A stretch of 64,000 nucleotides of DNA. Source: an uncultured Gammaproteobacteria bacterium (GTDB taxonomy: Bacteria > Patescibacteriota > Microgenomatia > JAMCZE01). The translations under genes and the position numbers were made by a program. Shown here one piece after another: positions 365-55,771 of this stretch (positions within the stretch are counted from its first letter, which is position 1; the number at the start of each line of letters is the position of its first letter). Location of the stretch: NCBI GenBank assembly GCA_964641255.1, contig CAZXMM010000001.1, positions 409,984 to 473,983 on the forward strand. The letters are read 5' to 3'. The notes below the pieces were generated by a model, which had not been told where the DNA came from, ran no database searches, and saw nothing but the letters and a program-made list of their open reading frames with translations.

Positions 365-1114
365 ATGAAAAATATTGTGGTGGTAATGCCAACCTATAAC
401 GAAGCCGAAAATATTGGCCGAATGATTGACACGCTTGTTGGAGAGGAATTTCCAAAGATTAAAGACCACAAAATGATGCTTCTTGTTGTTGACGATCACT
501 CACCTGATGGTACTTGGAAGATAGTCCAGGAGAAACAAAAGAAGTATAAAAATATTTTCTTGAGTGATTCAGAAACGAAACGCGGTTTAGGTGGAGCCTA
601 TATTGATGGCTTTGGTTACGCGATTAAGGAATTAAAAGCCGATGGTATCATGGAGATGGATGCCGATTTTCAGCACGACCCCAAAGACGTAAAACGTTTT
701 GTGGCCGAATTTGATAAAGGTTATGACTATATTTTAGGCACTCGCTACATTCATGGCGGGTCAATTCCAAAAAACTGGGGATTTAAAAGAAAGTTTCTTT
801 CGGTAGTTGGTAATTGGTTTGGTCGCACAGCGCTCTTGTGGTTTGATATTCACGACCTAACCACTGGTTATCGTTTGGCTCGTGTTAAGGGATTTTTGGA
901 TCAGATGGATTTCAAACGAATTTTTTCTCGTTCCTATTCCTATAAATGGAGACTTATCTACGAGATGAAAAGTAGACGCGCGAAGATCAAAGAGATCGCG
1001 ATTATTTTTTCCCATCGTGAGAAGGGTTGGAGCAAAATGGATAGCGATGATTTTATTGAGAGTTTAAAAATCATTGGGCAAATTTGGCTGATACGACTTG
1101 GGCTACTTCAATGA
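365..1114 (+). CDS. GT2 polyprenyl-phosphate sugar synthase (Dpm1 / GtrB / CsbB-like)
   Basis: 249 aa with Dpm1-family motifs: VVMPTYNEAENI (N-terminal), VVDDHSPDGT (DxD/DDxS), EMDADFQHDP (DAD), and a C-terminal amphipathic/TM tail. Soluble GT-A size. Confidence 0.85.
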   Translation: MKNIVVVMPTYNEAENIGRMIDTLVGEEFPKIKDHKMMLLVVDDHSPDGTWKIVQEKQKKYKNIFLSDSETKRGLGGAYIDGFGYAIKELKADGIMEMDADFQHDPKDVKRFVAEFDKGYDYILGTRYIHGGSIPKNWGFKRKFLSVVGNWFGRTALLWFDIHDLTTGYRLARVKGFLDQMDFKRIFSRSYSYKWRLIYEMKSRRAKIKEIAIIFSHREKGWSKMDSDDFIESLKIIGQIWLIRLGLLQ

Positions 1115-1851
1115 AAACTCCACTTGTGGCGATAGTTGTTCCGACCCTGAATGAAGAAGGAGCCATTGGGGAGTTTCTTCGGTTACTCTTAATAGTTACC
1201 ACCGCGGAAAAAAAATTCCGCTGGCATCTGGTAGTAGTCGATAGTCAATCAGCGGACCGAACTACTGAAATAATTGACGCTTTTAAGCGAAGACACAAAG
1301 ATTTTTTGACCCTGATTAGTGCTCCCAGGGGTCTCGGGAGAAGTCTATTTTTAGGATTAGATTTTTGCTGTTTTAAACTTAAAGCCGATTATGCTATTAC
1401 TCTTGAGGCCGATCTATCAAACGACCCGAAACAGTTACCAGAATTTATCACCCCACTGACCACTGCCGATTTGGTAGTCGGTAGTCGCTATACAGCTGGT
1501 GGAAGAATTGAACACTGGTCATTTTGGCGCAAATTTCTAAGTTTTAGTGCCAACCTGACCTTACGGCTTTTAGTAGGAGGCAAAATTAAAGAGTACACCA
1601 ATCTCTATCGGAGCCTGCGCCTAACTAGCTGGAGAAAATTGCGACTGGGTTTAGTCAATACTACTGATTGGCTGTTTGTGCCCGCTTTAGTCTTTGAGGC
1701 AATTAGGCTCAAGCTTCGTATCAGTGAGATTCCAATTACTTATGCTGATCGAAGAGCGGGTCAGTCGAAGATGGATACCCCGTCTTATACCAAGAGCTTG
1801 CTCTTAGCTGCGATTCGCTTTAGAATGAATAAACATGGAACATTTTCTTAA
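1111..1851 (+). CDS. Dpm1/GtrB-like GT2 paralog with degenerate catalytic motifs
   Basis: ATG at 1111 overlaps the upstream stop (ATGA). Same fold pattern as the upstream gene, but the motifs are altered: VVPTLNEE, VVDSQSAD (instead of DDxSxD) and LEADLSND (instead of DAD). Confidence 0.7.
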   Translation: MKTPLVAIVVPTLNEEGAIGEFLRLLLIVTTAEKKFRWHLVVVDSQSADRTTEIIDAFKRRHKDFLTLISAPRGLGRSLFLGLDFCCFKLKADYAITLEADLSNDPKQLPEFITPLTTADLVVGSRYTAGGRIEHWSFWRKFLSFSANLTLRLLVGGKIKEYTNLYRSLRLTSWRKLRLGLVNTTDWLFVPALVFEAIRLKLRISEIPITYADRRAGQSKMDTPSYTKSLLLAAIRFRMNKHGTFS

Positions 1852-2299
1852 ATTTTTGGTGGTAGGGACGTTGGGTTTTATTATTAACACTCTAGGGCTA
1901 GTTCTGGGGGTAAAGGCTGGCCTTAGGCCCTCAATCGCTGCCCCAATCGGGTCTGAGGTGGCAATTATTTCCAATTTTATTTGGAATAACTTTTGGACAT
2001 TTTCTGACAAAGTAATTACCTCTCCCCAAGACATAGTCTTTAAGTTTATTCAGTTCAACTTTTTGTCCCTTGCTGCAGTGTTAATCCAGTTTGTGGCACT
2101 AAGACTGGGCGAGTTGCTGTTTGGAATGGTTAAATTCAAAGAGCCGTTTGTTAACTTACCCATTTTTGCTACCCTGCCATTTATCAAAAGGATACCGCTT
2201 GCCAAAAAGTTTTCCCTGTACTTTATCTTTTATATCGGTAGTGTTGGTCTCGGACTGGTGGTTAATTTCACTATGTACAGCCTCATTATTTGGCGTTAG
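1835..2299 (+). CDS. GtrA-family small membrane protein (putative polyprenyl-phosphate-sugar flippase)
   Basis: 154 aa with 4 predicted TM helices. N-terminus FLKFLVVGTLGFIINTLGLVL is typical of the GtrA family. It sits directly downstream of the Dpm1/GtrB-like pair. Confidence 0.8.
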   Translation: MEHFLKFLVVGTLGFIINTLGLVLGVKAGLRPSIAAPIGSEVAIISNFIWNNFWTFSDKVITSPQDIVFKFIQFNFLSLAAVLIQFVALRLGELLFGMVKFKEPFVNLPIFATLPFIKRIPLAKKFSLYFIFYIGSVGLGLVVNFTMYSLIIWR

Positions 2300-2306
2300 T
2301 AGCTAA

Positions 2307-3797
2307 ATGCGAAAACTACTCGGAACTACACTTCTTCCCCTTGTGTCCCTCATAGCTGTTGGGGCATTACTCCGGTTATACCGAATAGGCGACTATATTA
2401 GGTTTCTGGGCGATGAGGGTAGAGATGCGTTAGTCGTTAAAAGAATGATAGTGGAACACGACTGGACACTCCTTGGTCCCAACGCTTCGGTTGGTGGGTT
2501 TTATACCGGTCCAATTTACTATTACTTTATGTTGCCCTTTTTATGGTTGTCCAAGCTTGATCCGATTGGTCCGGCGGTAATGTCTGCTCTCTTTGGACTA
2601 CTAGCCATTGGTCTGATTTATTACTTTTGTCGACTGATCTTTAACCCCCGTGTGGCCCTCGTTGCGGCTGCCATTACTACTTTATCTCCGAAGTTTATCG
2701 AGATTTCGCGTTTTTCTTGGAACCCTAACCCCATTCCTGTCTTTGCACTGATAGTAGTCATCAGTCTCTATTTATCTTTCTTGCGCAAAAAATCTTATTA
2801 TGTTTTCTTTGCCGGTCTTGCTCTAGGGATAATGATCCAACTTCATTATTCGGGGCTAGTGTTTGTGGCAGTAATGGCTCCAATCGTGCTACTAATCCTT
2901 CCCCTTCGCAAGCTGCCCTTGACTATCCTGTTTGCCACTTTGGGTTTTGTTGCGGGTGAGTCACTTTTTTTAGTTTTTGAGGCTCGCCACGGATTTCCTA
3001 ATACTCGGACAGTTCTTGAGTTTTTTACGCGCCGCGATGACGGGGCCACTATTTCAGTCCAATTTGATATTTTAGGCAGCGCCAGAGACGTGCTGCGACG
3101 ACTTTATGAGACGGTGATTGGTACTGGTGGAATAGTGGTCGCTCTTTTGGCGACCTCTTCGTTAGTCGCACTAATTACCTGGGTAATTAGTCAGCGGGGA
3201 AAATTAGCTGACCGAGCCAAGGTAGTAGTTATTTTATCCTGGCTTTTAATGGGAACTTTAGGAACTACACTGTATCGGGGTCAGCTACTTGATCACTATT
3301 TCATTTTCCAATACCCTCTTGTCCCAATTTTTATTGCCCTACTTATTGACCGCCTTTTCAGGCTTAATTGGACAAGGTTTGTCTGTTTGGCGATTTTAAT
3401 ATTGGTATTTTACCTAGAAATTAGCCATTTATTTATTTGGTCTAACCCTAACTTTTTGGTCAGGCAGACAAAAGAGGTAGATAAACTGGTTTTAGATTTA
3501 GCTGGAGAGCGGCCCTACAATTTTGCCCTAATTGCCCCAGGTAATAGTGATCACGCATACCGCTATTTTCTAGAAATTCAAAACCGCAAGCCCGTAGTGG
3601 TGGAACCACCAGAGACCGACCCGATGAGGAATTCAATTACCGACCAGCTAATCGTAGTTTGCGAACAGAGAGATTGTAGTCCGCTGGGCTATCCTTTGTG
3701 GGAAGTCGCCGGTTTTGGGCGGGCGGAAATTGTTGATACGGTGATTGGCCCAGCTGGTATTAAAATTTTTAAACTTATCCACTATACTGGTACCTAA
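2307..3797 (+). CDS. Polytopic GT-C-like membrane glycosyltransferase, family A (ArnT/PMT_2-like)
   Basis: 496 aa with about 11-12 hydrophobic segments. First periplasmic loop reads RLYRIGDYIRFLGDEGRDALVVKRMI (DE motif). Paralogous to 28676-30181(-) and 13244-14812(-). Confidence 0.55.
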   Translation: MRKLLGTTLLPLVSLIAVGALLRLYRIGDYIRFLGDEGRDALVVKRMIVEHDWTLLGPNASVGGFYTGPIYYYFMLPFLWLSKLDPIGPAVMSALFGLLAIGLIYYFCRLIFNPRVALVAAAITTLSPKFIEISRFSWNPNPIPVFALIVVISLYLSFLRKKSYYVFFAGLALGIMIQLHYSGLVFVAVMAPIVLLILPLRKLPLTILFATLGFVAGESLFLVFEARHGFPNTRTVLEFFTRRDDGATISVQFDILGSARDVLRRLYETVIGTGGIVVALLATSSLVALITWVISQRGKLADRAKVVVILSWLLMGTLGTTLYRGQLLDHYFIFQYPLVPIFIALLIDRLFRLNWTRFVCLAILILVFYLEISHLFIWSNPNFLVRQTKEVDKLVLDLAGERPYNFALIAPGNSDHAYRYFLEIQNRKPVVVEPPETDPMRNSITDQLIVVCEQRDCSPLGYPLWEVAGFGRAEIVDTVIGPAGIKIFKLIHYTGT

Positions 3798-3798
3798 G

Positions 3799-4584
3799 AT
3801 GAAAAGTATCTACTTATCAGTCATAATTCCCTCCTACAACGAAACCGAGAATCTGAAGCGGGGAGTTTTGGACCAAGTTAACAGTTATCTTTCCAAGCAA
3901 AGCTATACTTGGGAAGTTATTGTGTCTGATGATGGTTCACCAGCTAAAGAATCTCGAGAGCTCGCTAAAGCCTTCTGTGATAATCATAAAGAGTTCACGT
4001 TTTTAGAGAACGCTCACGCCGGCAAACCCTTTGCTGTCTGGGCAGGCATCCAGAAAGCAAGCGGTAAGATTGTTCTTTTTACAGATATGGATCAGTCAAC
4101 TCCCATTACCGAGCTTTCAAAGCTTTTGCCTTATTTTGACCAAGGATACAAAATAGTCATTGGTAGTCGGGGCAGTGCTCGCAAAAATTCTAGCCCGCTG
4201 CGCTTGTTAGCCTCCACTGTATTTAGGGAAGTGCGCCGGACGTTCCTATTGAGAAATATTATCGATACTCAAGCCGGATTTAAAGCGCTTAATCGGGAAG
4301 TGGCACTAGAACTTTTCCCTCTGCTGCAAATTATCAGGCAGGGCGTCGAAGTAAACACCGGCTGGCGGGTTACTTCTTTTGATGTCGAACTACTCTACGC
4401 TGCGGAACGTAGAGGTTATAAGATAGCTGAGGTACCAGTGATTTGGGAAAACGAAGATTTAGCCATGGATACCAAAAAAAGCAGTAATAAGGGGAAATTT
4501 CTCAAAGAGTCGGTAGATATGCTGGGTGAGATTATCCGGGTGAAGAAAAATGCGATGCAGGGTCTTTACGATAAAAATAAATGA
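3799..4584 (+). CDS. GT2 polyprenyl-phosphate sugar synthase (Dpm1/GtrB-like)
   Basis: ATG at 3799 lies 1 nt after the upstream stop. Motifs LSVIIPSYNETENL, VSDDGSPAKES and FTDMDQSTP. Confidence 0.8.
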   Translation: MKSIYLSVIIPSYNETENLKRGVLDQVNSYLSKQSYTWEVIVSDDGSPAKESRELAKAFCDNHKEFTFLENAHAGKPFAVWAGIQKASGKIVLFTDMDQSTPITELSKLLPYFDQGYKIVIGSRGSARKNSSPLRLLASTVFREVRRTFLLRNIIDTQAGFKALNREVALELFPLLQIIRQGVEVNTGWRVTSFDVELLYAAERRGYKIAEVPVIWENEDLAMDTKKSSNKGKFLKESVDMLGEIIRVKKNAMQGLYDKNK

Positions 4585-5705
4585 TTGCGGTCTATTTGGC
4601 TTTACTGGGACTGTTGGGAATCTACACCTACTCTCAGATTGACCTTAACCTCACCCTTTTTCAGGCCCCTGTTTTTTTGACTTTCCAGCAGTACATGATC
4701 CAGTTAGGCTATTATCAAAGAACCTGGTCGGCAGCCCTTTTCCTTGGTCTCATCATTGGGCTCTTTGCACTTTACGGGTATTTTCTCAAGAATTTGCCCC
4801 TACTCACTAAGCGCCAATGGTTTTGTAGCGGGGTGGTTATTGGAATGGTAACACTTCTCTCTTACCCCGCGTTTTCCTACGATTTTTTTAATTATCTTTT
4901 TGACGCTCGTATTGTTACAGCGTATGGCCAAAACCCCTATTTTTTTAAAGCCCTAGACTTTCCTCTTGATCCCTGGATCCGTTTCATGCACTGGATCCAT
5001 CGCACTTATCCCTATGGTCCGGGTTGGCTCCTTATTACTACCCCATTGTCGTTTCTAGGTTTAGGGAAATTTGTTTTGACCGCTGTTTTATTCAAGTTAC
5101 TGTTTATTGCTAACTACTTTCTGGCATTATTTATAATTGGAAAAATCTACTCAATTATTAACCCCGAAAAAAGAACTTGGGCCCTTGTCTTTTTTGGATT
5201 AAACCCTCTTATTATTATAGAGACCCTCATTAGTCCCCATTTGGATGCAATTATGACCAGCTCTCTGTTATTAGGCTTTTACCTCATTTTAAAACAGCGC
5301 AAATGGCTCGCATTTCTGACCTTGATTTTTTCTGGCAGCATCAAGTTTCTGACTTGGGTTCTCATCCCCTTACACGGCATCAAACTTTCTTTTGAGAGAG
5401 GGGTAGAGCTATCCTTATTCTTATTAACACTAATTCTTGTTCCAGTGATTTTGCAGCGAGAGTTTTATCCCTGGTACGCAATTCCTCTGCTAGCCATAGT
5501 TGCGCTGTTGCCTAAAAGAAAATTTCTTCACTACTTGGCACTAGTTTTGTCCCTGGGGCTTCTTTGTCAGTACGGGTCCTTTCTTTACTTTGGAGAGTAC
5601 ACCACTCTTACTAGCTTGGTAAAACTAGGAGCCCTTTTGTTTCCTCTGGTTACTCTTTTGCCTCTCTATTTCGTTTCTAAGTATCCTTTTTCTTTCAAAG
5701 ATTGA
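4581..5705 (+). CDS. Polytopic membrane protein, candidate GT-C-type (possibly GT87/DUF2029-like mannosyltransferase) - function uncertain
   Basis: 374 aa with more than 9 hydrophobic helices. ATGA overlap with the upstream gene. Family assignment is tentative. Confidence 0.4.
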   Translation: MIAVYLALLGLLGIYTYSQIDLNLTLFQAPVFLTFQQYMIQLGYYQRTWSAALFLGLIIGLFALYGYFLKNLPLLTKRQWFCSGVVIGMVTLLSYPAFSYDFFNYLFDARIVTAYGQNPYFFKALDFPLDPWIRFMHWIHRTYPYGPGWLLITTPLSFLGLGKFVLTAVLFKLLFIANYFLALFIIGKIYSIINPEKRTWALVFFGLNPLIIIETLISPHLDAIMTSSLLLGFYLILKQRKWLAFLTLIFSGSIKFLTWVLIPLHGIKLSFERGVELSLFLLTLILVPVILQREFYPWYAIPLLAIVALLPKRKFLHYLALVLSLGLLCQYGSFLYFGEYTTLTSLVKLGALLFPLVTLLPLYFVSKYPFSFKD

Positions 5706-7366
5706 ACAAGAGCTGAAGCCTTATTTTTTTCAAAGTTGAAGTCTTCATCTAAATTGAAGTCTTGGGTTTTTGAACCTTTAAACTGTAAGCTGGGATTCAC
5801 ATCGTTGAGTCGGACATAGTTCTTGTTCAGAAAATCAATAAAGAAAGCATTATAGTCAGCTGAGCCGCCAAAAGCTGAGAAATAACGCTGGTAGACAATA
5901 ATGTCCGCTCGGTTAGCCGTGTAGTCGGCGATTACGCCGGATAAGAGTTTTGGACTGTTCACAAATTGTGGCAATATCCAATGATACTTAGACGGTACCT
6001 TGCAGTTTAGGTAATAGATTTCTTCAAACTGGAAGGGCCCCACCCAACAATAGTGGTCAGTGGGGACGACGGCATTAATTAGGGGTGCGACTTGGGGGCG
6101 GTCGTAAATAAGGGGCATAGTGCCCATATAGCGATTGTAGGTCATTCTCCAAAGCTCCATCGAGAAAAATAGAGTGGTAAATAGCCAGTAGATAAGGAGC
6201 CCGACAAAGGCAAACTTTAAAAACCCCGAAAATAGTGGTCCGTCTTCGCCTTGTTGGTCTTTGGCTATAAACCAGAAGAAGAAACTCGCATGGAAGAAAG
6301 TAATAAAGAAATACACTGCCGACTGGTAGTCGGTAGTTTGTGATGTGAGGGGATTGCCACGAACGGTACTGTAGACAATTAGTAAAAAGGAGAGTAAGAA
6401 CAATAGAAATTTCCGTTTCCATAGTAGGGTGACCCAAAGGACTACATTTGTCACTCCCATGGTGAGATTAAACGGCGTCATCAGATCTGTTCGGGTGATA
6501 CCAGAGAGTAGTACTTGATAGTTATTTAAGAAGTTATTCAAAATCACGATAGCATAGCGGATGGGGTTAAGGGAGGTTGATCCCGGAGGTCGAGGATAGT
6601 TATAGATGTAATAGTTTTTGTTATAGATGATAGCGTCAAAATAGTAGTCGGCTAAAGAGCCAGTGATTAAAAGATAGAGTAGAAAAAGACCATACGGTAG
6701 GCCAAAGATAAGAGCAAACAAAAGAACTTTTTTCACCAAAGCTTTATCGAGTCTAGTCTTTGTGGCCGTAACAAAAGAGACAAAGGTTACCAGGGTGAGG
6801 ATAATTGATTCATATAAATAGGTTGTCGACATGAGCATGGTGAGCGCGGAAAAGATTGACACGACGATAAGGTCAGCCTTCATCAGGGCTTGCCCTCTGT
6901 ACAATTTGACAAAGAGGAGAGTGTAAGCGGGGATCAGCATGTAACCACTTAGTGGATCGGCCAGAAACATATGACCCCAGAAATAGGTGGAAGCCAGGGC
7001 GATGAGGGGGGCGTAAATAAAAAAGAAGCCAGTATCCTGCCGATTTAACCGCTTTCTTAGTAACCATAGAGTTAACCCAAAAATCCCTAGGTAAAAAATT
7101 GCCGTCATAAGACGAAAACGCACGAACGATTGGTCTGAGAATATGCCTAGTAGCGCAGCAAAAAAGTAAGCTAGCGGGCCGTGGTGCGAAAAGAAGTCGC
7201 GATAAGGAAGTTTTCCCTTCAGAATGTCGTGTCCACCCAAAATATTATCAAATTCATCGGGATAACTATTGTGGACGCTATTAACTAAAAGAACAACTAG
7301 AAGACAAAAAAAGAAACTAAGAATTCTACGGTGTCTCTTTACAAAGTTCCACAAGGTGAGAACCAT
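5666..7366 (-). CDS. Polytopic membrane protein (GT-C-like candidate), unknown family
   Basis: 566 aa and highly hydrophobic throughout. Convergent with 4581-5705, overlapping its 3' end by 40 bp. Divergent from the YfhO gene at 7406. Confidence 0.4.
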   Translation of the reverse strand: MVLTLWNFVKRHRRILSFFFCLLVVLLVNSVHNSYPDEFDNILGGHDILKGKLPYRDFFSHHGPLAYFFAALLGIFSDQSFVRFRLMTAIFYLGIFGLTLWLLRKRLNRQDTGFFFIYAPLIALASTYFWGHMFLADPLSGYMLIPAYTLLFVKLYRGQALMKADLIVVSIFSALTMLMSTTYLYESIILTLVTFVSFVTATKTRLDKALVKKVLLFALIFGLPYGLFLLYLLITGSLADYYFDAIIYNKNYYIYNYPRPPGSTSLNPIRYAIVILNNFLNNYQVLLSGITRTDLMTPFNLTMGVTNVVLWVTLLWKRKFLLFLLSFLLIVYSTVRGNPLTSQTTDYQSAVYFFITFFHASFFFWFIAKDQQGEDGPLFSGFLKFAFVGLLIYWLFTTLFFSMELWRMTYNRYMGTMPLIYDRPQVAPLINAVVPTDHYCWVGPFQFEEIYYLNCKVPSKYHWILPQFVNSPKLLSGVIADYTANRADIIVYQRYFSAFGGSADYNAFFIDFLNKNYVRLNDVNPSLQFKGSKTQDFNLDEDFNFEKNKASALVQSLKEKGYLETK

Positions 7367-7405
7367 ACTCGTATATAATATACTATGTGGGTCGGTTAGT
7401 CACTA
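7367..7405. promoter_or_regulatory. Divergent intergenic region with TATATAATATACTAT element
   Basis: Only 39 bp separate the start codons of 5666-7366(-) and 7406-9790(+). The sequence ctcgTATATAATATACTATgtggg resembles overlapping -10 elements. Confidence 0.3.
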
Positions 7406-9790: not shown

Positions 9791-9791
9791 T

Positions 9792-14812: not shown

Positions 14813-14854
14813 ATGTACCGAGCAGGGCTCCTCACAGTAGGATATAATTGCTCA
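14813..14854. promoter_or_regulatory. Short divergent region with TATAAT hexamer (14841-14846) between the minus-strand gene start (14812) and the probable + gene start (14855)
   Basis: The sequence aggaTATAATtgctcaATGtccATG places a -10-like hexamer 8-14 nt upstream of the candidate ATGs. This would imply a leaderless or very short-leader mRNA. Confidence 0.25.
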
Positions 14855-18008: not shown

Positions 18009-18011
18009 ACT

Positions 18012-18824: not shown

Positions 18825-18827
18825 ACT

Positions 18828-22071: not shown

Positions 22072-22072
22072 A

Positions 22073-30181: not shown

Positions 30182-30184
30182 ATA

Positions 30185-33315: not shown

Positions 33316-34973
33316 AAAAACATTCAATTGTTTTGCTAACTTTGGTTGTGGTCTTGGGGTTGGTACTGCGCTTTTGGCATTTGGGCCAAGTGCCTCCTAG
33401 CTTGGATTGGGATGAAGCCTCACTCGGCTGGAATGCTTATTCGCTTTTAAAAACGGGGACTGATGAGTACGGGGTGAGCACTCCGTTGACCATTCGCTCC
33501 TTTAATGACTACAAGCCACCGGTTTATGTGTATGGCTTGACTTTGGTGCTCTTTTTTTTGGGACTTTCGGATTTTTCCATCCGTTTTTTATCGGCCCTCG
33601 CCGGGTCACTATCGGTGCTAGGTGTCTATTTTCTCGTTAGGGAATTAGTTCAAATTGGTAGGCGTGACAATTCTGTCACTAGCCTTCCCCTCCTATCTGC
33701 TTTGCTTCTAGCAATTTCCCCGTGGTCGGTCGGTTTTAGTCGCGTTGCCTTTGAGGCCAATCTGGCGCAATTATTTATTATTAGTGGTGCACTGTGGCTG
33801 TTAGTATTTTTGAGAAAACAAGCCTCTTGGCAGCTTTTTTTAGCACTTGGGAGCTACCTTGTTGCTTTTTACTGCTACCACAGCAGCCGCTTATTTGTCC
33901 CTTTGTTTTTGGTAAGTAGTGCACTTTGTTTACCACTTTTAAGTAAAGTTAGAAAACTACTACTCGTTGGGCTGGTGATTTTTGCCCTTTTTTTATTACC
34001 CGCTTTTAAAAGTGTGGTTACGGGGGATGGTACGGCCGCTCGGTTTGGGTCCGTCAGCATCTTTGCCCCGGAAGCCTACAAAGAACAAAAAGCTGTGCAA
34101 GAAAAAAGTTATCAGGAAGCTAAATCCCAGTCTGATCTGATCGGTAGCCTTAAAAATCACCGCTTTACTTTTTTTCCTCGGCAGTTTCTGGCCAATTATT
34201 TGTCCTATTTTGATTTTCGCTTCCTATTTTTACAAGCCGATGATAATAACCGTCATCACGCCCCCGATGTGGGATTACTGCCGCTTTGGGAGTCCCCGTT
34301 TTTAATTCTGGGTTTATTTTTTCTGTTTAGCAAAAGACCAGCCTGGAAAAGATTTCTTCTCATTTGGTTTCTTGCTGCCCCCGTTGCTGGGGCACTCGCC
34401 AGCCCCTCACCCCATGCGATTAGGTCTTTTGTTTTTTTGCCGACTTGGCAAATTATTACCGCTTTTGGGCTGCTATCAATTATCCAGATTTTATTTGGTT
34501 GGAAACGTAAACTTCTTGTTATGGCAATAGCCTGCTTAGCAATTGTTAACATTTATTATTTTGCTCATCAATATTTTATTCATGAACCTAAAGAGTATGC
34601 GGCCGATTTTCAATACGGCTATAAGCAAACTGTTCAAGTCGTAAAACCCCTTGAGCCCAACTACAAGGAAATATTTGTCACCAATTATTATGACCAGCCC
34701 TATATTTATTTTCTCCTCTATGGTGGGAGCGATCCGACTGTTAAAAATGACGGCACACTGGGAGAAAAGTATGGCAAAATTCGCTTTCTTAACTTTAGAA
34801 ATTTAAATAGTGAGGAAAAAAGACAGCTTCCCAAAGACGCTCTTTTTGTTGTCGCTCCTGGGGACGAAATTGCTCTATCGGTTGTAAAGGTTATCGTTAG
34901 GAGCCAGGACGGTAGACCACTCTTTATTGTGGGCGAGCAAGTTACCGATCTTGGATGGGGTAGTAGTCTTTAG
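33312..34973 (+). CDS. ArnT/PMT-like GT-C membrane glycosyltransferase, family B paralog 6
   Basis: Loop RFWHLGQVPPSLDWDEASLGWNAYSLLKTGTDEYGVSTPLTIRSFNDYKPPVY. Confidence 0.7.
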   Translation: MKKHSIVLLTLVVVLGLVLRFWHLGQVPPSLDWDEASLGWNAYSLLKTGTDEYGVSTPLTIRSFNDYKPPVYVYGLTLVLFFLGLSDFSIRFLSALAGSLSVLGVYFLVRELVQIGRRDNSVTSLPLLSALLLAISPWSVGFSRVAFEANLAQLFIISGALWLLVFLRKQASWQLFLALGSYLVAFYCYHSSRLFVPLFLVSSALCLPLLSKVRKLLLVGLVIFALFLLPAFKSVVTGDGTAARFGSVSIFAPEAYKEQKAVQEKSYQEAKSQSDLIGSLKNHRFTFFPRQFLANYLSYFDFRFLFLQADDNNRHHAPDVGLLPLWESPFLILGLFFLFSKRPAWKRFLLIWFLAAPVAGALASPSPHAIRSFVFLPTWQIITAFGLLSIIQILFGWKRKLLVMAIACLAIVNIYYFAHQYFIHEPKEYAADFQYGYKQTVQVVKPLEPNYKEIFVTNYYDQPYIYFLLYGGSDPTVKNDGTLGEKYGKIRFLNFRNLNSEEKRQLPKDALFVVAPGDEIALSVVKVIVRSQDGRPLFIVGEQVTDLGWGSSL

Positions 34974-34974
34974 T

Positions 34975-36693
34975 ATGAATATTTTGTCCTTACTGCGGCG
35001 TCTTTTTCCTGTGACAATCGTTGTAGTGTCTACTCTTTTGGCGCTCCAAGCTAGTATCCAAAATCCTTTTTATACCTCCCACGATGGGTTTTTGCATCTG
35101 GCCAGAATGGCGGCCTACTATCAAAGTCTTGAGGATGGTCAGTTTCCACCCCGGTGGGCCACCGGACTTAACGGCAACATGGGGTCACCTATCTTTGTCT
35201 TTATCTATCCTCTACCGTACCTCTTGGGCGCTTTAACTCACTTCTTAGGGTTAACTTACATTAACTCTTACCAGTTTTGGACAGTTGCCGGGACAGTAAT
35301 TTCCGCCATAGCCATGTACGCTTGGTTGCGGCAATCCTTTGACAGGGTAGCTAGTATGGTTGGAGCGATAGCTTATGTCTGGGTACCTTACCGGTTTCTA
35401 AACCTTTACGTCCGGGGGGCTTTTGCCGAAAATTTAGCTTTCACCCTGCCACCGCTAGTGTTGCTGTGTCTGGGTAACTTACTAAGTCGGAAGAGAAAAC
35501 TCCTGTGGTGGAGCCTATTCTCTTTATCACTGGCTGCGCTACTACTCATGCATAGTCAAATTGCGGCTCTTGCCCTGCCACTCATTATTGGGTTTGGGAC
35601 TATTCAAATGATTATCGCCAGGGACAAAAAAATAGTAGTGCCAGTGGTACTAGCTTTGGTTACCTCGTTTTTACTGGCCAGCTTTGTTTACCTTCCCGAT
35701 TTGTTTGAGCGCTCACTTGTTAACTTTGACAACAGCTTTTTCTTTTACAAAGATTACTTCGTGACTCCCTGGCAACTAGTAAGCAGTCCGTGGGGCTTTG
35801 GTTTTGATCTTCCTGGCACTATCCATGACGAAATGTCCTTTAAAATTGGCCAAACTCAAATTGCTGCCATGTTTGGATCGGCGGTGCTAATTAGTTGGCA
35901 GCTAGTCAAAAGAAAAAAGACTTTAGCTGTCGCAGCGCCTTTGCTTTTTCTGTTAGCCTCACTAGGCGCTCTTTTTTTGATGGTTGAGAGCCTGTTGGGG
36001 AAACTTATCTGGGAGTATTTACCAATTATTAAAACCATTGTTGATTATCCCTGGCGCCTTTTCTTTGTGGTGGTTTTTTCTGGGTCTTTTCTCCTAGCTT
36101 TTGTTCTTAGTCGGTTGTCTTTTAAGTATTTAATGGCCACGGTAGCAATTGTCTTTTTAATAATTTCCAATCGTAACCACACTCGAATTAACCTGCCGCA
36201 AAGTTTTACAAACAAACAGATAGAGAGCTATCGGGGTAGTGCCACAGCCGCAACGAATGAATACAAGCCCAGAGTTCACGTTAACGAGACGTTTGTAGAA
36301 AGACAATCAGCGGTTGAGGCGGTGCGGGGTGAGGTTTTTGTTTCTGGCGTCTGGCAAAGTGCTCTCGGCCTTGGTTTTACGACCCGGGCGACAATGTCTG
36401 GGCTAGTGCGAATTAACCGGTTTTATTTTCCTGAAACCATTATCAAGCGTAGCTCCCAGACCCTAGAATTGGGTCAAGATTATTTTGTGATTACTCCAGG
36501 TAAGACCGTACCAGACAACGACACCGGACTTATAAATCTCCTTGTCGTACCGGGGGAGTCTAGGTATACTCTTTCTTTTGAAGATAGTAAAATTCGTAAA
36601 GTCGGAAATATTCTTAGCCTGATAACCGTGCTGGGACTGGGTAGTATCCTGGCATTTGAACTGGCGCGGTGGGGTTTTTCTAAACGTGTATGA
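34975..36693 (+). CDS. Polytopic membrane protein, family D paralog 3 (YfhO-like / COG5617-like)
   Basis: ATG at 34975 follows the upstream TAG (the ORF is open from 34927). Loop SHDGFLHLARMAAYYQSLEDGQFPPRWATGLNGNMGSPIFVFIYPLPYLLG. Confidence 0.5.
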   Translation: MNILSLLRRLFPVTIVVVSTLLALQASIQNPFYTSHDGFLHLARMAAYYQSLEDGQFPPRWATGLNGNMGSPIFVFIYPLPYLLGALTHFLGLTYINSYQFWTVAGTVISAIAMYAWLRQSFDRVASMVGAIAYVWVPYRFLNLYVRGAFAENLAFTLPPLVLLCLGNLLSRKRKLLWWSLFSLSLAALLLMHSQIAALALPLIIGFGTIQMIIARDKKIVVPVVLALVTSFLLASFVYLPDLFERSLVNFDNSFFFYKDYFVTPWQLVSSPWGFGFDLPGTIHDEMSFKIGQTQIAAMFGSAVLISWQLVKRKKTLAVAAPLLFLLASLGALFLMVESLLGKLIWEYLPIIKTIVDYPWRLFFVVVFSGSFLLAFVLSRLSFKYLMATVAIVFLIISNRNHTRINLPQSFTNKQIESYRGSATAATNEYKPRVHVNETFVERQSAVEAVRGEVFVSGVWQSALGLGFTTRATMSGLVRINRFYFPETIIKRSSQTLELGQDYFVITPGKTVPDNDTGLINLLVVPGESRYTLSFEDSKIRKVGNILSLITVLGLGSILAFELARWGFSKRV

Positions 36694-37406
36694 AGAAGCT
36701 ATCAATTATTATTCCAGTCTATAACGAAGAAGCTACGCTCAAAGCGGTTTTGGAGCGGGTGGTAAGCGTGAAGTATTTAGTCCCGTTTGAAGTAATTATC
36801 GTTAATGACGGGTCTCGAGATAGAAGCGGAGTGATTGCGGAAAAATTCGTCCAAGGTAACAAAAGCGCCCGCTATATTTCCCACGAGAAGAATCAGGGGA
36901 AAGGCGCAGCGGTGAGGACCGGTGCCAAGGCAGCTAGTGGTGATTATCTAATTATCCAAGATGCGGACCTAGAATATGACCCCCAGGATATTGTTCGTTT
37001 GATAAGAGAGCTAGGAAATCATCCAAAAGACGCGGTAATCTATGGGTCCAGACTGATGCAGCCGCCAGTCTTATTTGGACCAGATAAAACCCCATTGCTA
37101 CTCCATTATTTTGGTAACCGCTTCTTAAGTCTAGTGACTAGTCTGCTCTATGGCGAGTGGATCACTGATATGGAGACGTGTTTTAAACTCATTCCTGCCA
37201 GCTTTATGCAAACAGTAAAGCTTAATGCTCGTGGTTTTGAACTAGAACCAGAGCTAACGGCCAAGCTTCTTAAGGGGGGATACGACATTTTCGAGATCTC
37301 TATCCAAACCAAACCTCGCGGGTTTGATGAGGGCAAGAAACTCCGGACTTTTTATGATGGCCGTAAGGCTCTATGGGCGCTCATTAAGTACCGGTTCACA
37401 AATTAG
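36690..37406 (+). CDS. GT2 polyprenyl-phosphate sugar synthase (Dpm1/GtrB-like)
   Basis: Motifs LSIIIPVYNEEATL, IVNDGSRDRSG and IQDADLEYDP. Confidence 0.8.
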   Translation: MKKLSIIIPVYNEEATLKAVLERVVSVKYLVPFEVIIVNDGSRDRSGVIAEKFVQGNKSARYISHEKNQGKGAAVRTGAKAASGDYLIIQDADLEYDPQDIVRLIRELGNHPKDAVIYGSRLMQPPVLFGPDKTPLLLHYFGNRFLSLVTSLLYGEWITDMETCFKLIPASFMQTVKLNARGFELEPELTAKLLKGGYDIFEISIQTKPRGFDEGKKLRTFYDGRKALWALIKYRFTN

Positions 37407-38189: not shown

Positions 38190-39219
38190 GGCTCCCCAGG
38201 TGCAAAGCCACGTTAGGGGGGTGGGTTTTTACGCCGATCGACTTCTTAGTCATCTTAATACGATTGACGGCGTAGTGGCCAAGCTCCTACCCTTTTCTAG
38301 GAATCCGATTTCCTACCTTTCTTATGATATTGTGCACTACTCGTATTTTGACCTCACCTTTCCAACTTATCTGCCAACTCTAGGTAAACCGACGGTAGTT
38401 ACTCTTCACGATGTTGTTCCCTTGCGGTTCCCCGGGGCTTTTCCGCTGGGGAAGCGGGGCCGGGTGGTTTGGCCAGTGCAGCGGCTACTTCTTAGGACTG
38501 CCTCGGCGGTAATTACTGACTCTAAAACGTCTCAAGTTGATATCGCTGAGTTAGCGGGGGTGCCAAGGAATAAAATTTATCCCATTTATTTGGCGGCGGA
38601 CCCAGCCTATAAGCCAGTAACTAGCGAAATAGTTAAGCAGCAGATTCGTAGGAAGTATCACTTGGGCCAAAACTTTGTGCTGTATGTAGGGGGGGTTAAC
38701 TGGAATAAAAATCTGCCTACACTCGCCAAAGCTTGTGAGCTTGGTCGGCTAGAGCTAGTCATTGTTGGAAAGGAAGCGCTTGGTGAAAGTCTGGATCCGG
38801 CGCACCATGAGAGTCAACCCTTTAGGGAATTTATGACGGTCGCTACCCGGTATCCCCAGATCAAAAGAGTGGGGTTTGTCCCCCTGGAGGAGCTGGCCGC
38901 TCTTTATAGTCTGGCTATGGTCTACGTTCAGCCCTCCTTTTATGAAGGATTTGGACTGCCTGTCCTTGAAGCCATGTCCTGCGGCTGTATCGTCATGAGT
39001 GGGAAAAACAGTAGTTTGGCTGAAATTGGAGGTGAGGCTACCTTATACAGCGATATTGATTCGCCAGAAAATTTGCAAAAAAAGATAGAATTTGTAAAAA
39101 CGCTTAGTCCCAAAGACAGGGCCCTACTTAGTGCTAAGTCCCGCGCCAGGGCGGCCGAGTTTACTTGGGAGAAAACGGCCAAAGAGACCTATGAAATTTA
39201 TAAAAAAGTTTTGGCATAA
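38170..39219 (+). CDS. GT4 family glycosyltransferase
   Basis: C-terminal FYEGFGLPVLEAMSCGCIVMSGKNSSLAEIGGEATLY is the E-x7-E signature. A G6 run lies at 38216-38221 near the 5' end. Confidence 0.8.
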   Translation: MKVALIRAPQVQSHVRGVGFYADRLLSHLNTIDGVVAKLLPFSRNPISYLSYDIVHYSYFDLTFPTYLPTLGKPTVVTLHDVVPLRFPGAFPLGKRGRVVWPVQRLLLRTASAVITDSKTSQVDIAELAGVPRNKIYPIYLAADPAYKPVTSEIVKQQIRRKYHLGQNFVLYVGGVNWNKNLPTLAKACELGRLELVIVGKEALGESLDPAHHESQPFREFMTVATRYPQIKRVGFVPLEELAALYSLAMVYVQPSFYEGFGLPVLEAMSCGCIVMSGKNSSLAEIGGEATLYSDIDSPENLQKKIEFVKTLSPKDRALLSAKSRARAAEFTWEKTAKETYEIYKKVLA

Positions 39220-40303
39220 TTACCATTTTGTCCTTCTCGTCGTTATCGTTTGGCGGGCGTATTTGTTTGCCGTTGGTTTTTTGGGATTTTCTCTACTCAC
39301 TTTCAAAGCCAGTTTCCCCTACATCGACCAACACTTAATTGCCAGCACTTTTCCCCAGTGGTTTTGGCACTGGGGTAATTTTGACGGAGTCCACTATCTT
39401 GATTTAGCTACCCACGGGTATCATGCGCAGGGACTGCACGTATTTTTCCCCATGTACCCCATAATTGTCAGTGGCCTAGAAAAAGTAATCGGTAATTACT
39501 TCTTGGCTGGGTTTATAGTTTCTCATGCCGCCATTGTTCTGGCGGCCCTACTTTTTTACAAGTTTTTAAAGACTTCCTATTCTGAGTCAGTAGCTAAATG
39601 GGCGATTGTTCTTTTGTTTGCCTTTCCGACCTCCTTTTTCTTTGGGAGTTTGTATACCGAGAGTCTATTTTTTCTCTTAATAGTGTTATCAATTAGTACT
39701 ACGGGTTATGTTAGTGCGGTTGTTAATTTTTTTGCGGGACTAACAAGGTTGGTGGGAGTTTTTTTAAGTTTGGGTAGTTTGTGGCCAAAAACCAAATGGA
39801 AATACTTTCTGATTTCTATCTCCGGGTTAATCGTGCTTCTGCTATATAGTTGGTATTTCTACTTTTCACCGCTACTGATTATTTCCGATCAAGCCAATTT
39901 TCAAAATGCCCGGGCTACCACTCTTTCTGGGCTTGTCACTCCCTTTCAGGTAGTGTTTCGCTATCTTAAGATTTTTACGACCGCTAACCCCACCCATTAT
40001 GACTATCTACTCGCTGTTTTAGAATTTTTAGCTTTTGGTCTGGGGACGGTGGTCCTCGCCCTTCTGACCTGGAAACGCAGATTTAAGGCTGAGTGGTTGG
40101 CCTTTGGCTGGTTATCGCTACTGTTACCTACGTTGTCAGGAACATTTTCCTCCATGCCCAGATATCTGCTGATCGTCTTCCCGCTCTTTATTGCCTTTGG
40201 ACAATTAAAAAACCGCTGGCTTAAATTAACAATACTGGCTCTGAGTACAATGCTGCTTAGTGTGTTGACCATGCTTTTCGTACGTGGTTATTTTGTAAGC
40301 TAA
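39191..40303 (+). CDS. Polytopic membrane protein resembling PIG-V / Mannosyl_trans2-type GT-C mannosyltransferase
   Basis: ATG at 39191 (the ORF is open from 39131). Loop FPQWFWHWGNFDGVHYLDLATHGYHAQGLHVFFPMYP matches the DG-HY...GY...FFP pattern of GPI mannosyltransferase 2-like proteins. Confidence 0.45.
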   Translation: MKFIKKFWHNYHFVLLVVIVWRAYLFAVGFLGFSLLTFKASFPYIDQHLIASTFPQWFWHWGNFDGVHYLDLATHGYHAQGLHVFFPMYPIIVSGLEKVIGNYFLAGFIVSHAAIVLAALLFYKFLKTSYSESVAKWAIVLLFAFPTSFFFGSLYTESLFFLLIVLSISTTGYVSAVVNFFAGLTRLVGVFLSLGSLWPKTKWKYFLISISGLIVLLLYSWYFYFSPLLIISDQANFQNARATTLSGLVTPFQVVFRYLKIFTTANPTHYDYLLAVLEFLAFGLGTVVLALLTWKRRFKAEWLAFGWLSLLLPTLSGTFSSMPRYLLIVFPLFIAFGQLKNRWLKLTILALSTMLLSVLTMLFVRGYFVS

Positions 40304-41760
40304 TGAAACGTTACATTCCTTACTGGCTATTTTGGTTATTATTTATTTTTTTAGCTCTAGTTTTTAGAGACTCTTTCACCCACTTCTTCTTGGCAGATGA
40401 CTTTTTTCATATCATTCTCTCCAGAGGTGAAGCGCTCATTGGGGCGTTTAATATCTTTGAGCGCGCTTTTCGGGAGTATTATATTTACCGCCCCCTAACT
40501 ACTCAGTTATTTTGGACGGTGGGAGAGTCTCTCTTTGGATTAAACCCACTCCCTTATCACGTAATAAATTTTGCTTTTTACCTGGTTAATATCATTTTAG
40601 CTTATAAAGTTGGAAGGTTACTTTTGGGGTCGCCGCGCAGAGCCGGGCTAGTCACCCTTGTTTACGCCCTATCAGGGTCTCACTTTTACCGGCTTTTCTT
40701 TCTGTCTACTATTCAGGATACGGTTATGGCCACGCTGGTTATGTCAACACTCCTGCTGTATGCCAAAAACAGGAAGTTAGCTTTTGTGGCCTTTACTTTA
40801 GCACTAACCGCTAAAGAGACAGCGGTGACTACCCCAGCGATGCTTTTTGCTTATGACCTCTTAATCAACAAAAAATTTGCCCCCCGCGTCATTAGCTACG
40901 GCATAATTTCGGTTCTTTATTTTGCCGCCCACAAATACTTTTTTGGATTTTATCAAGGCGGGCTTTACACCTATGAATTTGGCTTACGAAGTACCATCAC
41001 CAATTATCTTTGGTACTACTTCTGGTCATTTGGCCTTCCCGAAGATTTTGTAAACGTTGGAGTGTTATCTCGTACTTTTTTTACGGGGGGGCAAGTACTT
41101 CAGACTTACGGCTGGTTTGGGCAAATCATTTTTTATCTTTTTCTCGCCCTTCAATCTTTGCTGGCTGTTGGGGCAACGCTCTGGTTAAAAACCCGTTTGC
41201 AGTGGCGCACCGTTCTTTTTGGGATAGCTGTGTTTATAGCCTTTGTGTTGCCGGTGGGCTTTTTCCCCTTTCACAAGTTTGCAATTAATTTGGCGGCCCC
41301 GCTGTTGGGGGTGGCACTGGTAGTTAGTGTGATCGTTGGCAGGATAAAATGGCTAACTTTTCTGGTGATTTTAGTTATGGCTATACTCCTTAGTCTTACG
41401 GTCGACTTTAACACTAATAATCACTGGATTAGTAAACGGGGCAAAATAGCCAGGGATACACTTACTCAGCTCAAAGAGCGCTATCCGCAGGGACTGGACG
41501 GCCAAACGATTTACGTTCGCAATAACTTCCAGTATCATTGTAAAATTGACCCAGGCGAGCAAAAGAACTCGGCCGAAATTGCCTATAGCCTGGCCTACCG
41601 CGACGGTCTGGACGTCTTTTATCCGAGAGATAACTTTAGTGTCTATTTCGAGGACTTTGATCAGAATGCCCACTGTGATATGTCTGTCGCCCTCGTTGAT
41701 GGTTGTAGAATTATCCGCACGGTTAAAGCCGATAGGGATCACTGTCCGAAAGGAGAATAA
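40303..41760 (+). CDS. Polytopic membrane protein with C-terminal extracytoplasmic domain, unknown function (GT-C-like or polymerase/ligase candidate)
   Basis: 485 aa. About 11 TM helices are followed by a roughly 130 aa hydrophilic C-terminal domain. TAATG overlap with the upstream gene. Confidence 0.4.
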   Translation: MKRYIPYWLFWLLFIFLALVFRDSFTHFFLADDFFHIILSRGEALIGAFNIFERAFREYYIYRPLTTQLFWTVGESLFGLNPLPYHVINFAFYLVNIILAYKVGRLLLGSPRRAGLVTLVYALSGSHFYRLFFLSTIQDTVMATLVMSTLLLYAKNRKLAFVAFTLALTAKETAVTTPAMLFAYDLLINKKFAPRVISYGIISVLYFAAHKYFFGFYQGGLYTYEFGLRSTITNYLWYYFWSFGLPEDFVNVGVLSRTFFTGGQVLQTYGWFGQIIFYLFLALQSLLAVGATLWLKTRLQWRTVLFGIAVFIAFVLPVGFFPFHKFAINLAAPLLGVALVVSVIVGRIKWLTFLVILVMAILLSLTVDFNTNNHWISKRGKIARDTLTQLKERYPQGLDGQTIYVRNNFQYHCKIDPGEQKNSAEIAYSLAYRDGLDVFYPRDNFSVYFEDFDQNAHCDMSVALVDGCRIIRTVKADRDHCPKGE

Positions 41761-41762
41761 CG

Positions 41763-42455
41763 ATGAATAAAACTAAACCTGCCAAAAACAGCGAAGTTCT
41801 GGTTGTCATTCCCGCTTTTAATGAGGAGCAAACCCTTCCGGGAGTAATCAGGGATTTAAAAGAACACGGCTACTTTACGATCTTAGTGGTTGATGACGGT
41901 TCAGGCGATGCTACCAGTGCTGTAGCAAAAGAAAATGACGTCATGATGGTGCGCCATGTGGTTAACAGGGGTCTCGGAGCTGCTCTAGGAACTGGGTTTT
42001 CTTTTGCTAAACAAAATAACTTCAATTATCTTGTTACCTTTGACGGCGATGGCCAACATGAGGGCCGTAAGGTCAAGAAGCTGCTGGAGCCCATCATTAG
42101 TAACCAGGCTGATGTGGTAATCGGCAGTCGGCTCATTGACAGAAAAAGTGCGCCTTTTAAGATAAGAGTCCTTAATTATATAGCTAACTTGATCACCTTT
42201 GTTTTATATGGGGTGTGGACTACCGACTCGTTGTCTGGGTTACGAGCTTTTAATAAAGTGGCCTTAGAAAAAATTCATATTAAAACCGATCGCATGGAAG
42301 TGAGCAATGAGTTTTTTAAAGAAATCAGGCGTAATAAATTGCGCTTTATTGAAGTGCCGATAAAAGCGATTTATACTGACTACAGTAAAGCGCACACTCA
42401 CAATTTGGATCCGTGGTCAGTAGGGTTTAAAATGGTTTTGCGACTCTTTAGATGA
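41763..42455 (+). CDS. GT2 polyprenyl-phosphate sugar synthase (Dpm1/GtrB-like)
   Basis: Motifs VLVVIPAFNEEQTL, VVDDGSGDAT and TFDGDGQHE. Confidence 0.8.
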   Translation: MNKTKPAKNSEVLVVIPAFNEEQTLPGVIRDLKEHGYFTILVVDDGSGDATSAVAKENDVMMVRHVVNRGLGAALGTGFSFAKQNNFNYLVTFDGDGQHEGRKVKKLLEPIISNQADVVIGSRLIDRKSAPFKIRVLNYIANLITFVLYGVWTTDSLSGLRAFNKVALEKIHIKTDRMEVSNEFFKEIRRNKLRFIEVPIKAIYTDYSKAHTHNLDPWSVGFKMVLRLFR

Positions 42456-42796
42456 CAATGATGGGAATTTTGCAACTGCTACTTTTAATTTTTTTGGCCT
42501 TTGCTTTAAGCAGAGTGGTGCTTCGTTTCAAAGATGGGCTCATTAAACTCCCGGAATTTGTTTTTTGGGGACTGCTTTTTACTTCCGCAATTGTTGGAGT
42601 AGTTCTACCCCAGGAAACCACTAGATTAGCAAAACTACTGGGTATTGGCAGGGGGGCGGATTTGATTGTCTATGCTTCGCTAGCTACATTGTTTTACCTA
42701 GTCTTTCGCATTTATGTCCTGATGGAGGATATTCGCCATGAGATTACTAGTGTAGTTCGTAAGATTGCCCTAGAGAAACAGAGTAAAAGTAGATGA
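42452..42796 (+). CDS. Small 3-TM membrane protein (DUF2304-like), partner of the upstream Dpm1-like GT2
   Basis: 114 aa with three hydrophobic helices. Translationally coupled (ATGA) to the GT2, an arrangement typical of DUF2304 proteins. Confidence 0.5.
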   Translation: MTMMGILQLLLLIFLAFALSRVVLRFKDGLIKLPEFVFWGLLFTSAIVGVVLPQETTRLAKLLGIGRGADLIVYASLATLFYLVFRIYVLMEDIRHEITSVVRKIALEKQSKSR

Positions 42797-46548: not shown

Positions 46549-46550
46549 CA

Positions 46551-48492: not shown

Positions 48493-48502
48493 GTTATTAA
48501 TC

Positions 48503-54957: not shown

Positions 54958-54960
54958 ATT

Positions 54961-55764: not shown

Positions 55765-55771
55765 TGGATTT

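Follow-up and report, generated by a model that had tools for sequence, protein, structure and literature searches.

A putative multi-donor GT-C glycosylation supercluster in Microgenomates-like Patescibacteria, with a GtrA module apparently derived from a split polyprenyl-phosphate-sugar synthase

Five putative soluble synthases in a conserved envelope-sugar cluster

The 64-kb stretch analysed here (hereafter the window) comes from contig CAZXMM010000001.1, its proteins also being present on a 950,062-bp NCBI contig, and carries a dense set of envelope-sugar genes, for which an original prediction covering positions 365-42796 had counted five polyprenyl-phosphate-sugar synthases, a single GtrA flippase and about twenty GT-C glycosyltransferases. 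Gene mapping together with Pfam and NCBIfam runs over the window reveals that such genes, tightly packed, occupy ~60 kb of the ~0.95-Mb genome (roughly 6-7%), with tsaE, an rmlABCD-like set and trmD directly upstream of the window. The first 12.3 kb are identical to an 82,107-bp Logan contig. The cluster arrangement is syntenic in at least eight other genomes at 43-75% amino-acid identity, and is therefore not a chance one; in particular, the operon GT2(365)-GT2(1084)-GtrA-GT-C(2307)-GT2(3799)-GT-C(4581), its genes named by their first position, is kept in the related loci L002-L008 and L010. The nearest relatives of the GtrA, 5666 and 40303 proteins come from metagenome-assembled genomes named Patescibacteria, Microgenomates, Amesbacteria, Levybacteria and Shapirobacteria, which suggests a Microgenomates-like lineage of the Candidate Phyla Radiation as the source of the window.

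Eleven open reading frames of the window match the GT2 family PF00535 (365, 1084, 3745/3799, 18012, 36690, 37407, 41763, 49497, 51007, 55772 and 61875). Polyprenyl-phosphate glycosyltransferases, namely the Pyrococcus furiosus dolichol-phosphate-mannose (Dol-P-Man) synthase PfDPMS (5mlz), ArnC and GtrB sll0501, are the best solved relatives of only five of them:

365..1114, + strand: synthase A, a Dpm1/type-III-DPMS-like GT2 catalytic subunit of 249 residues (5mlz E 6e-25 over residues 4-237; no transmembrane helix)
1084..1851, + strand (start given as 1111 in the original prediction): synthase B, a divergent Dpm1-like GT2 with EAD for DAD (5mlz E 7e-17, ArnC E 3e-11)
3799..4584, + strand (frame opens at 3745; gene-caller start 3799): synthase C, a GtrB/ArnC-like GT2 without C-terminal transmembrane helices (GtrB sll0501 E 8.5e-13; also 5mlz and ArnC)
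36690..37406, + strand: synthase D, a Dpm1/AglJ-like GT2 with no transmembrane helices and no obvious membrane partner (5mlz E 1.4e-15 over the full length; AglJ 84 bits)
41763..42455, + strand: synthase E, a PpgS/GacI-like GT2 without transmembrane helices (PpgS 138 bits and AglJ 130 bits, both below equivalog cut-offs; 5mlz E 9e-10; also ArnC)

The best NCBIfam families of these five are PgfS, AglJ, ArnC and PpgS, and their P..NE, DxD and GSR motifs are all present, with the EAD variant in synthase B. The control GT2s behave differently, as 18012 and 37407 match GmaR/SunS protein glycosyltransferases instead, and 49497, 51007, 55772 and 61875 match TuaG/EpsE-type enzymes. Best matches and motifs thus support the assignment of all five to the Dpm1/GtrB/ArnC type, a point on which the original prediction had staked its own refutation. 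Transmembrane helix prediction returned none in any of the five. Mutual identity among them is only 24-33% while each has conserved orthologues of its own, so that they appear to be ancient paralogues, and this divergence would fit different donor sugars. None reaches an NCBIfam equivalog cut-off, the best score being that of 41763 against PpgS (138 versus 370 bits), and a call of sugar specificity from the active site would consequently be a guess.

Synthase A, with orthologues in L002-L008 at 59-69% identity, carries DADFQHDP (seven of eight positions), TRY and RKFLS where type-III synthases have DADxQHPP, SRY and R131...S135, the correspondence being one of motif and spacing rather than of a residue-level alignment to 5mlz. 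At the DADxQHPP position synthase B reads EADLSNDP. Across its clade this becomes EADLS[N/C]DP, and D...G(F/Y)(R/K) is replaced by E(Y/F)TNLYR, both kept in the aligned orthologues (window, L007 and L008); such changes may mark an altered donor or mechanism. All 120 listed homologues of synthase D are proteins of 224-253 residues with GT2 domains only and no transmembrane helices, and several JGI records call them dolichol-phosphate mannosyltransferase.

GtrA as the probable detached membrane domain of a synthase

Between synthase B and the first GT-C gene lies the only GtrA gene detected:

1835..2299, + strand: GtrA-like four-helix membrane module of 154 residues (54 bits for PF04138, cut-off 26.1; its first 17 nucleotides overlap the end of 1084, in another frame)

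A GtrA-domain hidden Markov model scan of all six frames of the window and of 8 kb upstream recovered this gene (E 4e-47) and no second GtrA (next best 0.021), so that the single GtrA of the original prediction stands for the sequence covered. We fetched 80 loci encoding relatives of this GtrA from a genome-contig collection, in which the closest match to the window GtrA is 59%, and 47 of these loci contain a solid match. In 39 of the 47 (L007, L008 and 37 others) the GtrA-like segment shares one open frame of ~380-430 residues with a Dpm1-like GT2 domain, and occupies the C-terminal part of the resulting GT2-GtrA protein. In the syntenic loci L007 and L008 the orthologue of 1084 and GtrA form a single protein (open frames of 399 and 377 residues), whereas the two are separate genes in six genomes, namely that of the window and L002-L006. 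Alignment further places the C-terminus of the window 1084 protein (...AAIRFRMNKHG) and the N-terminus of its GtrA (MEHFLKFLVVG...) colinear with the fused proteins, and locates the fission point in the linker ahead of the first membrane helix. The junctions themselves differ among the split genomes, from the 17-nucleotide overlap of the window to abutting genes or gaps of ~60-110 nucleotides; a frameshift or sequencing artefact was considered and is ruled out by six split genomes with differing junctions, which show the split to be real.

The link between GtrA and the catalytic subunits extends beyond synthase B. In a neighbour-joining tree without bootstrap, synthase A and its orthologues without transmembrane helices nest in a clade of GtrA-fused catalytic domains, beside Amesbacteria and Levyibacteriota fusions, and the 1084 clade is the long-branch sister of that clade. 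L022, in addition, encodes a fusion between a GtrA domain and a homologue of synthase C (3745/3799; 39% identity). Fusion, or 'Rosetta-stone', evidence therefore connects three of the five synthases to the GtrA module, exactly those that reside in the GtrA operon. Together these comparisons indicate that the window GtrA is most plausibly the fission product of a GT2-GtrA fusion and not an independent flippase gene.

The structural record points in the same direction. The sole Protein Data Bank match of the window GtrA is the transmembrane domain of PfDPMS (5mlz, chain positions 254-373), with E 2e-6 for the single sequence and 9e-17 as a profile. The chain index of this entry equals UniProt numbering plus 22, an offset confirmed by N248, N277, F338 and R341 falling on the correct letters. 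A recent study of the archaeal enzyme (PMC12992685, 2026) placed the headgroup of flipped Dol-P-Man in a polar pocket that Asn248, Asn277 and Arg341 make up and for which Phe338 acts as the gate; other type-III enzymes have Asn where PfDPMS has Arg341. Residues N18, N47 and N144 of the window GtrA occupy the Asn248, Asn277 and Arg341/Asn positions, and N47 and N144 are invariant in the family. The same work reported that PfDPMS catalysis is independent of the transmembrane domain, for which product translocation was proposed (PMC12992685), and such independence fits the persistence of the domain as a separate gene.

Type III DPMS has been described as archaeal and hyperthermophilic (PMC12992685), and is defined by a catalytic and a GtrA-like domain in a single polypeptide; the fused relatives have this architecture and the window has it in split form. 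Synthase A resembles the catalytic domain and GtrA the membrane domain of the P. furiosus enzyme (5mlz/9ep0), GtrA having asparagines at the three pocket positions. The window differs from the published type, which is restricted to hyperthermophilic archaea, in being split and bacterial and in its gate residue (see below). We thus read the window, from homology, as a bacterial, split, type-III-like arrangement whose counterparts in many Patescibacteria are fused.

A putative partner of synthase E, the GT-C battery and neighbouring genes

The last of the five synthases is accompanied by a small membrane protein of another kind, as the original prediction had noted:

42452..42796, + strand: DUF2304 protein, putative partner of synthase E of the GacJ/Rv3632 type (PF10066, 69.9 bits; three predicted helices)

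DUF2304 is the family of GacJ and Rv3632, which bind and stimulate synthases: GacJ acts on GacI, a GT2 with no transmembrane helices, and Rv3632 acts in the same way on PpgS. The window protein shares the domain, the three helices and the position next to a polyprenyl-phosphate-HexNAc-type GT2 that lacks transmembrane helices, and belongs to this family of synthase activators, not to one of flippases. The 41763-DUF2304 pair is kept in L082, the closest relative of the right half of the cluster, as is the larger block 40303-41763-42452, which in the window is followed by two GT4 genes, a methyltransferase and the Wzm/Wzt genes. With the rml genes upstream of the window, this block resembles rhamnose-polysaccharide clusters carrying a GacIJL-type side-chain module, the likeness resting on the GT4s and ABC exporter beside the module and on rmlABCD upstream. 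It also parallels GacI-GacJ-GacK-GacL of S. pyogenes and PpgS-Rv3632 of M. tuberculosis, where a GT2 without transmembrane helices is combined with a DUF2304 three-helix partner and a GT-C; the GT-C that accompanies PpgS-Rv3632 is Rv3779. In the GacI/J/L system the Wzx-type GacK is the proposed flippase and GacL the GT-C. Unlike these systems, the window module has no adjoining Wzx gene, and its PpgS score of 138 falls short of 370 bits.

L082 has two genes that the window lacks, a GT2 at 6692-7453 (29% identity to 41763) and a DUF2079 membrane protein at 12546-14060. Members of the battery are gained and lost from one close relative to the next.

The GT-C genes and their evidence are as follows:

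2307..3797, + strand: PMT_2 group B, conserved beside GtrA (Pfam)
4581..5705, + strand: MptA/MptB-like (precomputed PF26314, MptA_B_family; nine helices; syntenic in L003-L010)
5666..7366, - strand: GT-C without a Pfam model (AlphaFold2 pLDDT 92; Foldseek top 16 all GT-C)
7406..9790, + strand: YfhO (Pfam)
9780..11354, + strand: PTPS_related, PF10131 (Pfam)
11307..13247, - strand: membrane protein of 646 residues with ~15 predicted helices, DUF6541-like, GT-C status uncertain (DUF6541 in 5 of 42 homologues)
13244..14812, - strand: PMT_2 group B (Pfam)
14813..16585, + strand: PTPS_related (Pfam)
19858..22071, + strand: YfhO (Pfam)
22073-23737, 23734-25377 and 25374-27038, + strand: three tandem PMT_2 group A genes (Pfam)
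27016..28701, - strand: PMT_2 group A (Pfam)
28676..30181, - strand: distant relative of PMT_2 group B (hhalign 92.6%)
30185-31807, 31804-33315 and 33312-34973, + strand: three tandem PMT/PMT_2 genes (Pfam)
34927..36693, + strand: PTPS_related (Pfam; overlaps synthase D by 4 nucleotides)
39131..40303, + strand: Mannosyl_trans2, PIG-V-like (60%-identical L082 orthologue with PF04188)
40303..41760, + strand: divergent PMT_2, directly upstream of synthase E (AlphaFold2 pLDDT 89.6; Foldseek ArnT, PglB and AftB)
59220..60683, + strand, outside 365-42796: GT-C-like DUF2142 (Pfam; hhalign 85.6% to PMT_2 group A)

Within 365-42796 we count 19 supported GT-C genes and one uncertain (11307), in agreement with the earlier estimate of about twenty, and one more lies outside at 59220; with the latter included, 20 genes qualify by Pfam, profile or fold. 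Pfam alone recovers 14, comprising nine PMT_2, three PTPS_related and the two YfhO genes already predicted (7406 and 19858). The tandem genes at 22073-27038 encode paralogues with 31-45% identity; the orthologue of 28676 in L082 is 59% identical and has no Pfam match on record; and the pairing of GT-C 34927 with synthase D is kept in L082. Single-sequence hhalign was uninformative for 5666, 11307 and 39131. Of these, 39131, with no Pfam match of its own, is assigned through the Pfam match of its orthologue, and 5666 through structure prediction, its Foldseek matches including STT3, ArnT, PglB, Pmt4 and AftA at probability 1.0 and E values down to 8.6e-5. The 5666 family has an invariant P-D-E-x-D in the first loop and an HH pair. 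The 40303 protein reaches 94.9% against PMT_2 group A in hhalign, PMT_2 is matched by 6 of 30 homologues, and D32-D33 are more than 90% conserved in its family. For 11307, hhalign gives 30% to PMT_2 group A, and a profile search of the Protein Data Bank returned no match.

Two of these proteins belong to sizeable families. That of 5666 (~570 residues) is well conserved in Patescibacteria, with 321 homologues at E<=1e-5 and 38-66% identity, and could warrant a GT-C family definition of its own. That of 11307 is large, with 805 cluster representatives at E<=0.001.

Transport functions of other types, together with further glycosyltransferases, surround the GT-C genes:

16560..18008, + strand: MOP/Wzx-type flippase, an alternative flippase candidate (Polysacc_synt_3 E 1.5e-48; NCBIfam MOP flippase 108 bits, O-glycosylation flippase 91 bits)
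60689..61906, + strand: second MOP/Wzx-type flippase (Pfam, NCBIfam)
45727..47768, + strand: ABC-2 permease and ATPase, a Wzm/Wzt-like polysaccharide exporter (Pfam)
48503-49375, 51738-53450 and 54070-54957: GT47, GT6 and GT11 genes of a low-G+C stretch

The two MOP/Wzx-type proteins mean that the lone GtrA is not the sole flippase candidate of the window, and the Wzm/Wzt-like exporter is a possible source of the acceptor polymer. The G+C content falls to 0.36-0.40 at 46000-56000, against ~0.44 elsewhere in the window, and the stretch may have arrived as an island by horizontal transfer. Beside methyltransferases and Wzm/Wzt, it encodes a GT47 (exostosin-like), a GT6 of 570 residues (E 8e-43) and a GT11 (fucosyltransferase-like; E 6e-35). 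GT6 and GT11 enzymes are the pair that builds blood-group A/B-like epitopes. The GT2 paralogues at 18012-18824 and 37407-38189 (30% identical) have Listeria GmaR and SunS-type enzymes as their best solved relatives, each adjoining a GT4 gene, and 61875-62663 has a weak SunS match too. These genes suggest that, besides the GT-C system, proteins are glycosylated in the cytoplasm. Finally, a polysaccharide pyruvyl transferase (58030-59223; PF04230, E 3e-31) lies beside the DUF2142 gene and the second Wzx gene. Pyruvylated secondary cell-wall polymers are known to anchor S-layer proteins, and the gene hints at a polymer of this kind.

The Patescibacteria-type operon also occurs, with 43-69% identity, in several metagenome-assembled genomes titled 'uncultured Gammaproteobacteria' or 'Pseudomonadales' (L002, L003, L005, L006, L007 and others), and these titles look like taxonomic mislabels. 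A search for literature tying the Candidate Phyla Radiation/Patescibacteria to GT-C, PMT_2 or GtrA found nothing relevant.

Donor supply, translocation and alternative readings

We favour, with a probability of about 0.6, a reading of the window as a supercluster for GT-C-dependent envelope glycosylation in Microgenomates-like Patescibacteria, supplied by several donors and assembled from modular parts rather than from 1:1:1 triplets. In such a system, the five diverged GT2 catalytic subunits would make polyprenyl-phosphate monosaccharides at the cytoplasmic face. GtrA, the membrane domain of a type-III-DPMS-like synthase turned separate gene, would be the cognate partner of synthase B and, to judge from common descent and conserved operon linkage, probably also that of synthases A and C. 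It could plausibly dock the catalytic heads and hand their products across the membrane, given that it retains the asparagines of the pocket that holds the flipped Dol-P-Man headgroup in the Pyrococcus enzyme. Synthase E would work with its own DUF2304 partner and synthase D without a visible one, and the ~20 GT-Cs would consume the flipped donors outside the membrane, decorating an exported polymer, with ABC and Wzx routes alongside, and/or surface proteins.

The original prediction took known modules to pair one synthase with one flippase and one GT-C, and concluded that a 5:1:~20 ratio implies either a promiscuous flippase or several lipid-linked donors. The premise does not hold, as three GT-A/GT-C pairs of L. 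lactis share a single GtrA-type protein, CflA, and Listeria GtcA handles both C55-P-Gal and C55-P-GlcNAc (PMC8035078, PMC7389260), and reviewers have renamed 'three-component' systems 'multi-component'. Of the conclusion, the part concerning several donors fits the low identity among the synthases, and the part that treats GtrA as an independent flippase gene does not survive the fusion data. We consider the ratio largely a counting artefact and not a paradox, since there are precedents for shared GtrA-type proteins, for DUF2304 partners and for Wzx alternatives, and GtrA is here part of a synthase.

Among characterized systems, CsbB-GtcA-YfhO, GtlA/GtlB-GtcA, L. lactis CsdAB/CD/EF with CflA, and phage GtrABC all follow a scheme in which a GT2 makes a C55-P-sugar and a GT-C transfers the sugar outside the membrane, with a GtrA-family protein implicated in the translocation between the two, and in multi-component systems one GtrA-type protein can serve several synthase/GT-C pairs. 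The window differs from these in synthases that, unlike CsbB and GtrB, lack membrane helices, in a GtrA that appears to be a fission product, and in scale, with five synthases and ~20 GT-Cs against at most three and three. The Ppm1-dependent mycobacterial and corynebacterial GT-C battery and eukaryotic DPM1-3 offer a further likeness, as one lipid-monophosphate sugar donor feeds many GT-Cs and catalytic subunits without transmembrane helices can rely on a membrane partner (PMC3485146); those systems belong to another lineage, and the window has several donors and both GtrA-like and DUF2304 partner types. Two elements are new here, a GT-C battery of this size in a genome of 0.95 Mb and the presence of natural split and fused type-III-like synthases in bacteria.

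Several observations weigh against our reading. Sharing of GtrA by synthases A and C depends on synteny and on the phylogeny described above; that GtrA-family domains flip lipids is in itself hypothetical; the window GtrA has Leu141 where PfDPMS has its gating Phe338; and the two Wzx proteins may simply flip pyrophosphate-linked oligosaccharides. Two motifs of synthase B deviate (EAD for DAD, E/N-L for D..G), and its activity may be altered; all five synthases score below the equivalog cut-offs. The counts of GtrA, DUF2304 and other flippase genes, finally, cover at most 72 kb of the 950-kb genome.

That last point opens the way to the alternative that survives best, in which the imbalance is a one-window effect and further GtrA, SMR-like or small flippase genes elsewhere pair with the remaining synthases. 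The window is less than 7% of the contig and GT2-GtrA fusions are common in related genomes; the 709-kb contig of the relative L005 yielded one GtrA locus, which is weak evidence to the contrary as the scan catches close matches only, and we hold this account possible, if on balance doubtful. Rather unlikely, in our estimate, is the proposal that GtrA is merely a membrane anchor or lipid-presenting subunit, translocation being left to the MOP proteins, the GT-Cs or another scramblase. It would agree with the MOP flippases within the cluster and with the challenge raised to a flippase role of the GtrA-family protein Rv3789, but the catalysis of PfDPMS without its transmembrane domain led its authors to argue for a role beyond supporting catalysis, and the polar-pocket asparagines are invariant in the family.

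The first option of the original prediction, a free-standing promiscuous GtrA flipping the products of all five synthases, can draw on the lone GtrA in the sequence examined and on the precedents of CflA and GtcA. We nonetheless consider it unlikely, because orthologues of GtrA are covalently fused to one particular synthase, synthase E sits in a GacI/GacJ-type arrangement whose known counterpart has a Wzx flippase, two MOP flippases are present, and 35-40 kb separate GtrA from synthases D and E. It is similarly improbable that some of the five GT2s (36690, perhaps the EAD-variant 1084) glycosylate an acceptor other than polyprenyl phosphate, as the subthreshold scores, the non-canonical motifs of 1084 and the many ordinary GT2s that match the N-terminal half of 36690 nearly as well might suggest, given that 36690 aligns over its full length only to PfDPMS and AglJ and overlaps a GT-C gene in a conserved pair, and that 1084 orthologues are fused to the GtrA/DPMS membrane domain.

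Within the supercluster reading, we tentatively raise a more specific possibility, itself more doubtful than not, that in Patescibacteria several interchangeable soluble heads dock on one shared, fission-born GtrA module, which also translocates their products. If so, one small membrane protein could supply several polyprenyl-phosphate sugars to ~20 GT-Cs, and a synthase-plus-flippase architecture ascribed to hyperthermophilic archaea would be widespread in these bacteria. Which protein flips polyprenyl-phosphate sugars has long been asked for bacteria, archaea and eukaryotes alike, a flippase role of GtrA proteins being only presumed, and the natural fused and split synthase/GtrA pairs of this lineage could be used to distinguish docking, lipid presentation and translocation by the GtrA domain. 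For annotation, counting 'GtrA' genes as flippases misleads in lineages whose GtrA domain mostly belongs to a synthase. More generally, the commitment of ~60 kb of a 0.95-Mb genome to extracytoplasmic glycosylation suggests that episymbiotic Patescibacteria carry a heavily decorated surface, and provides a defined gene set for its study.

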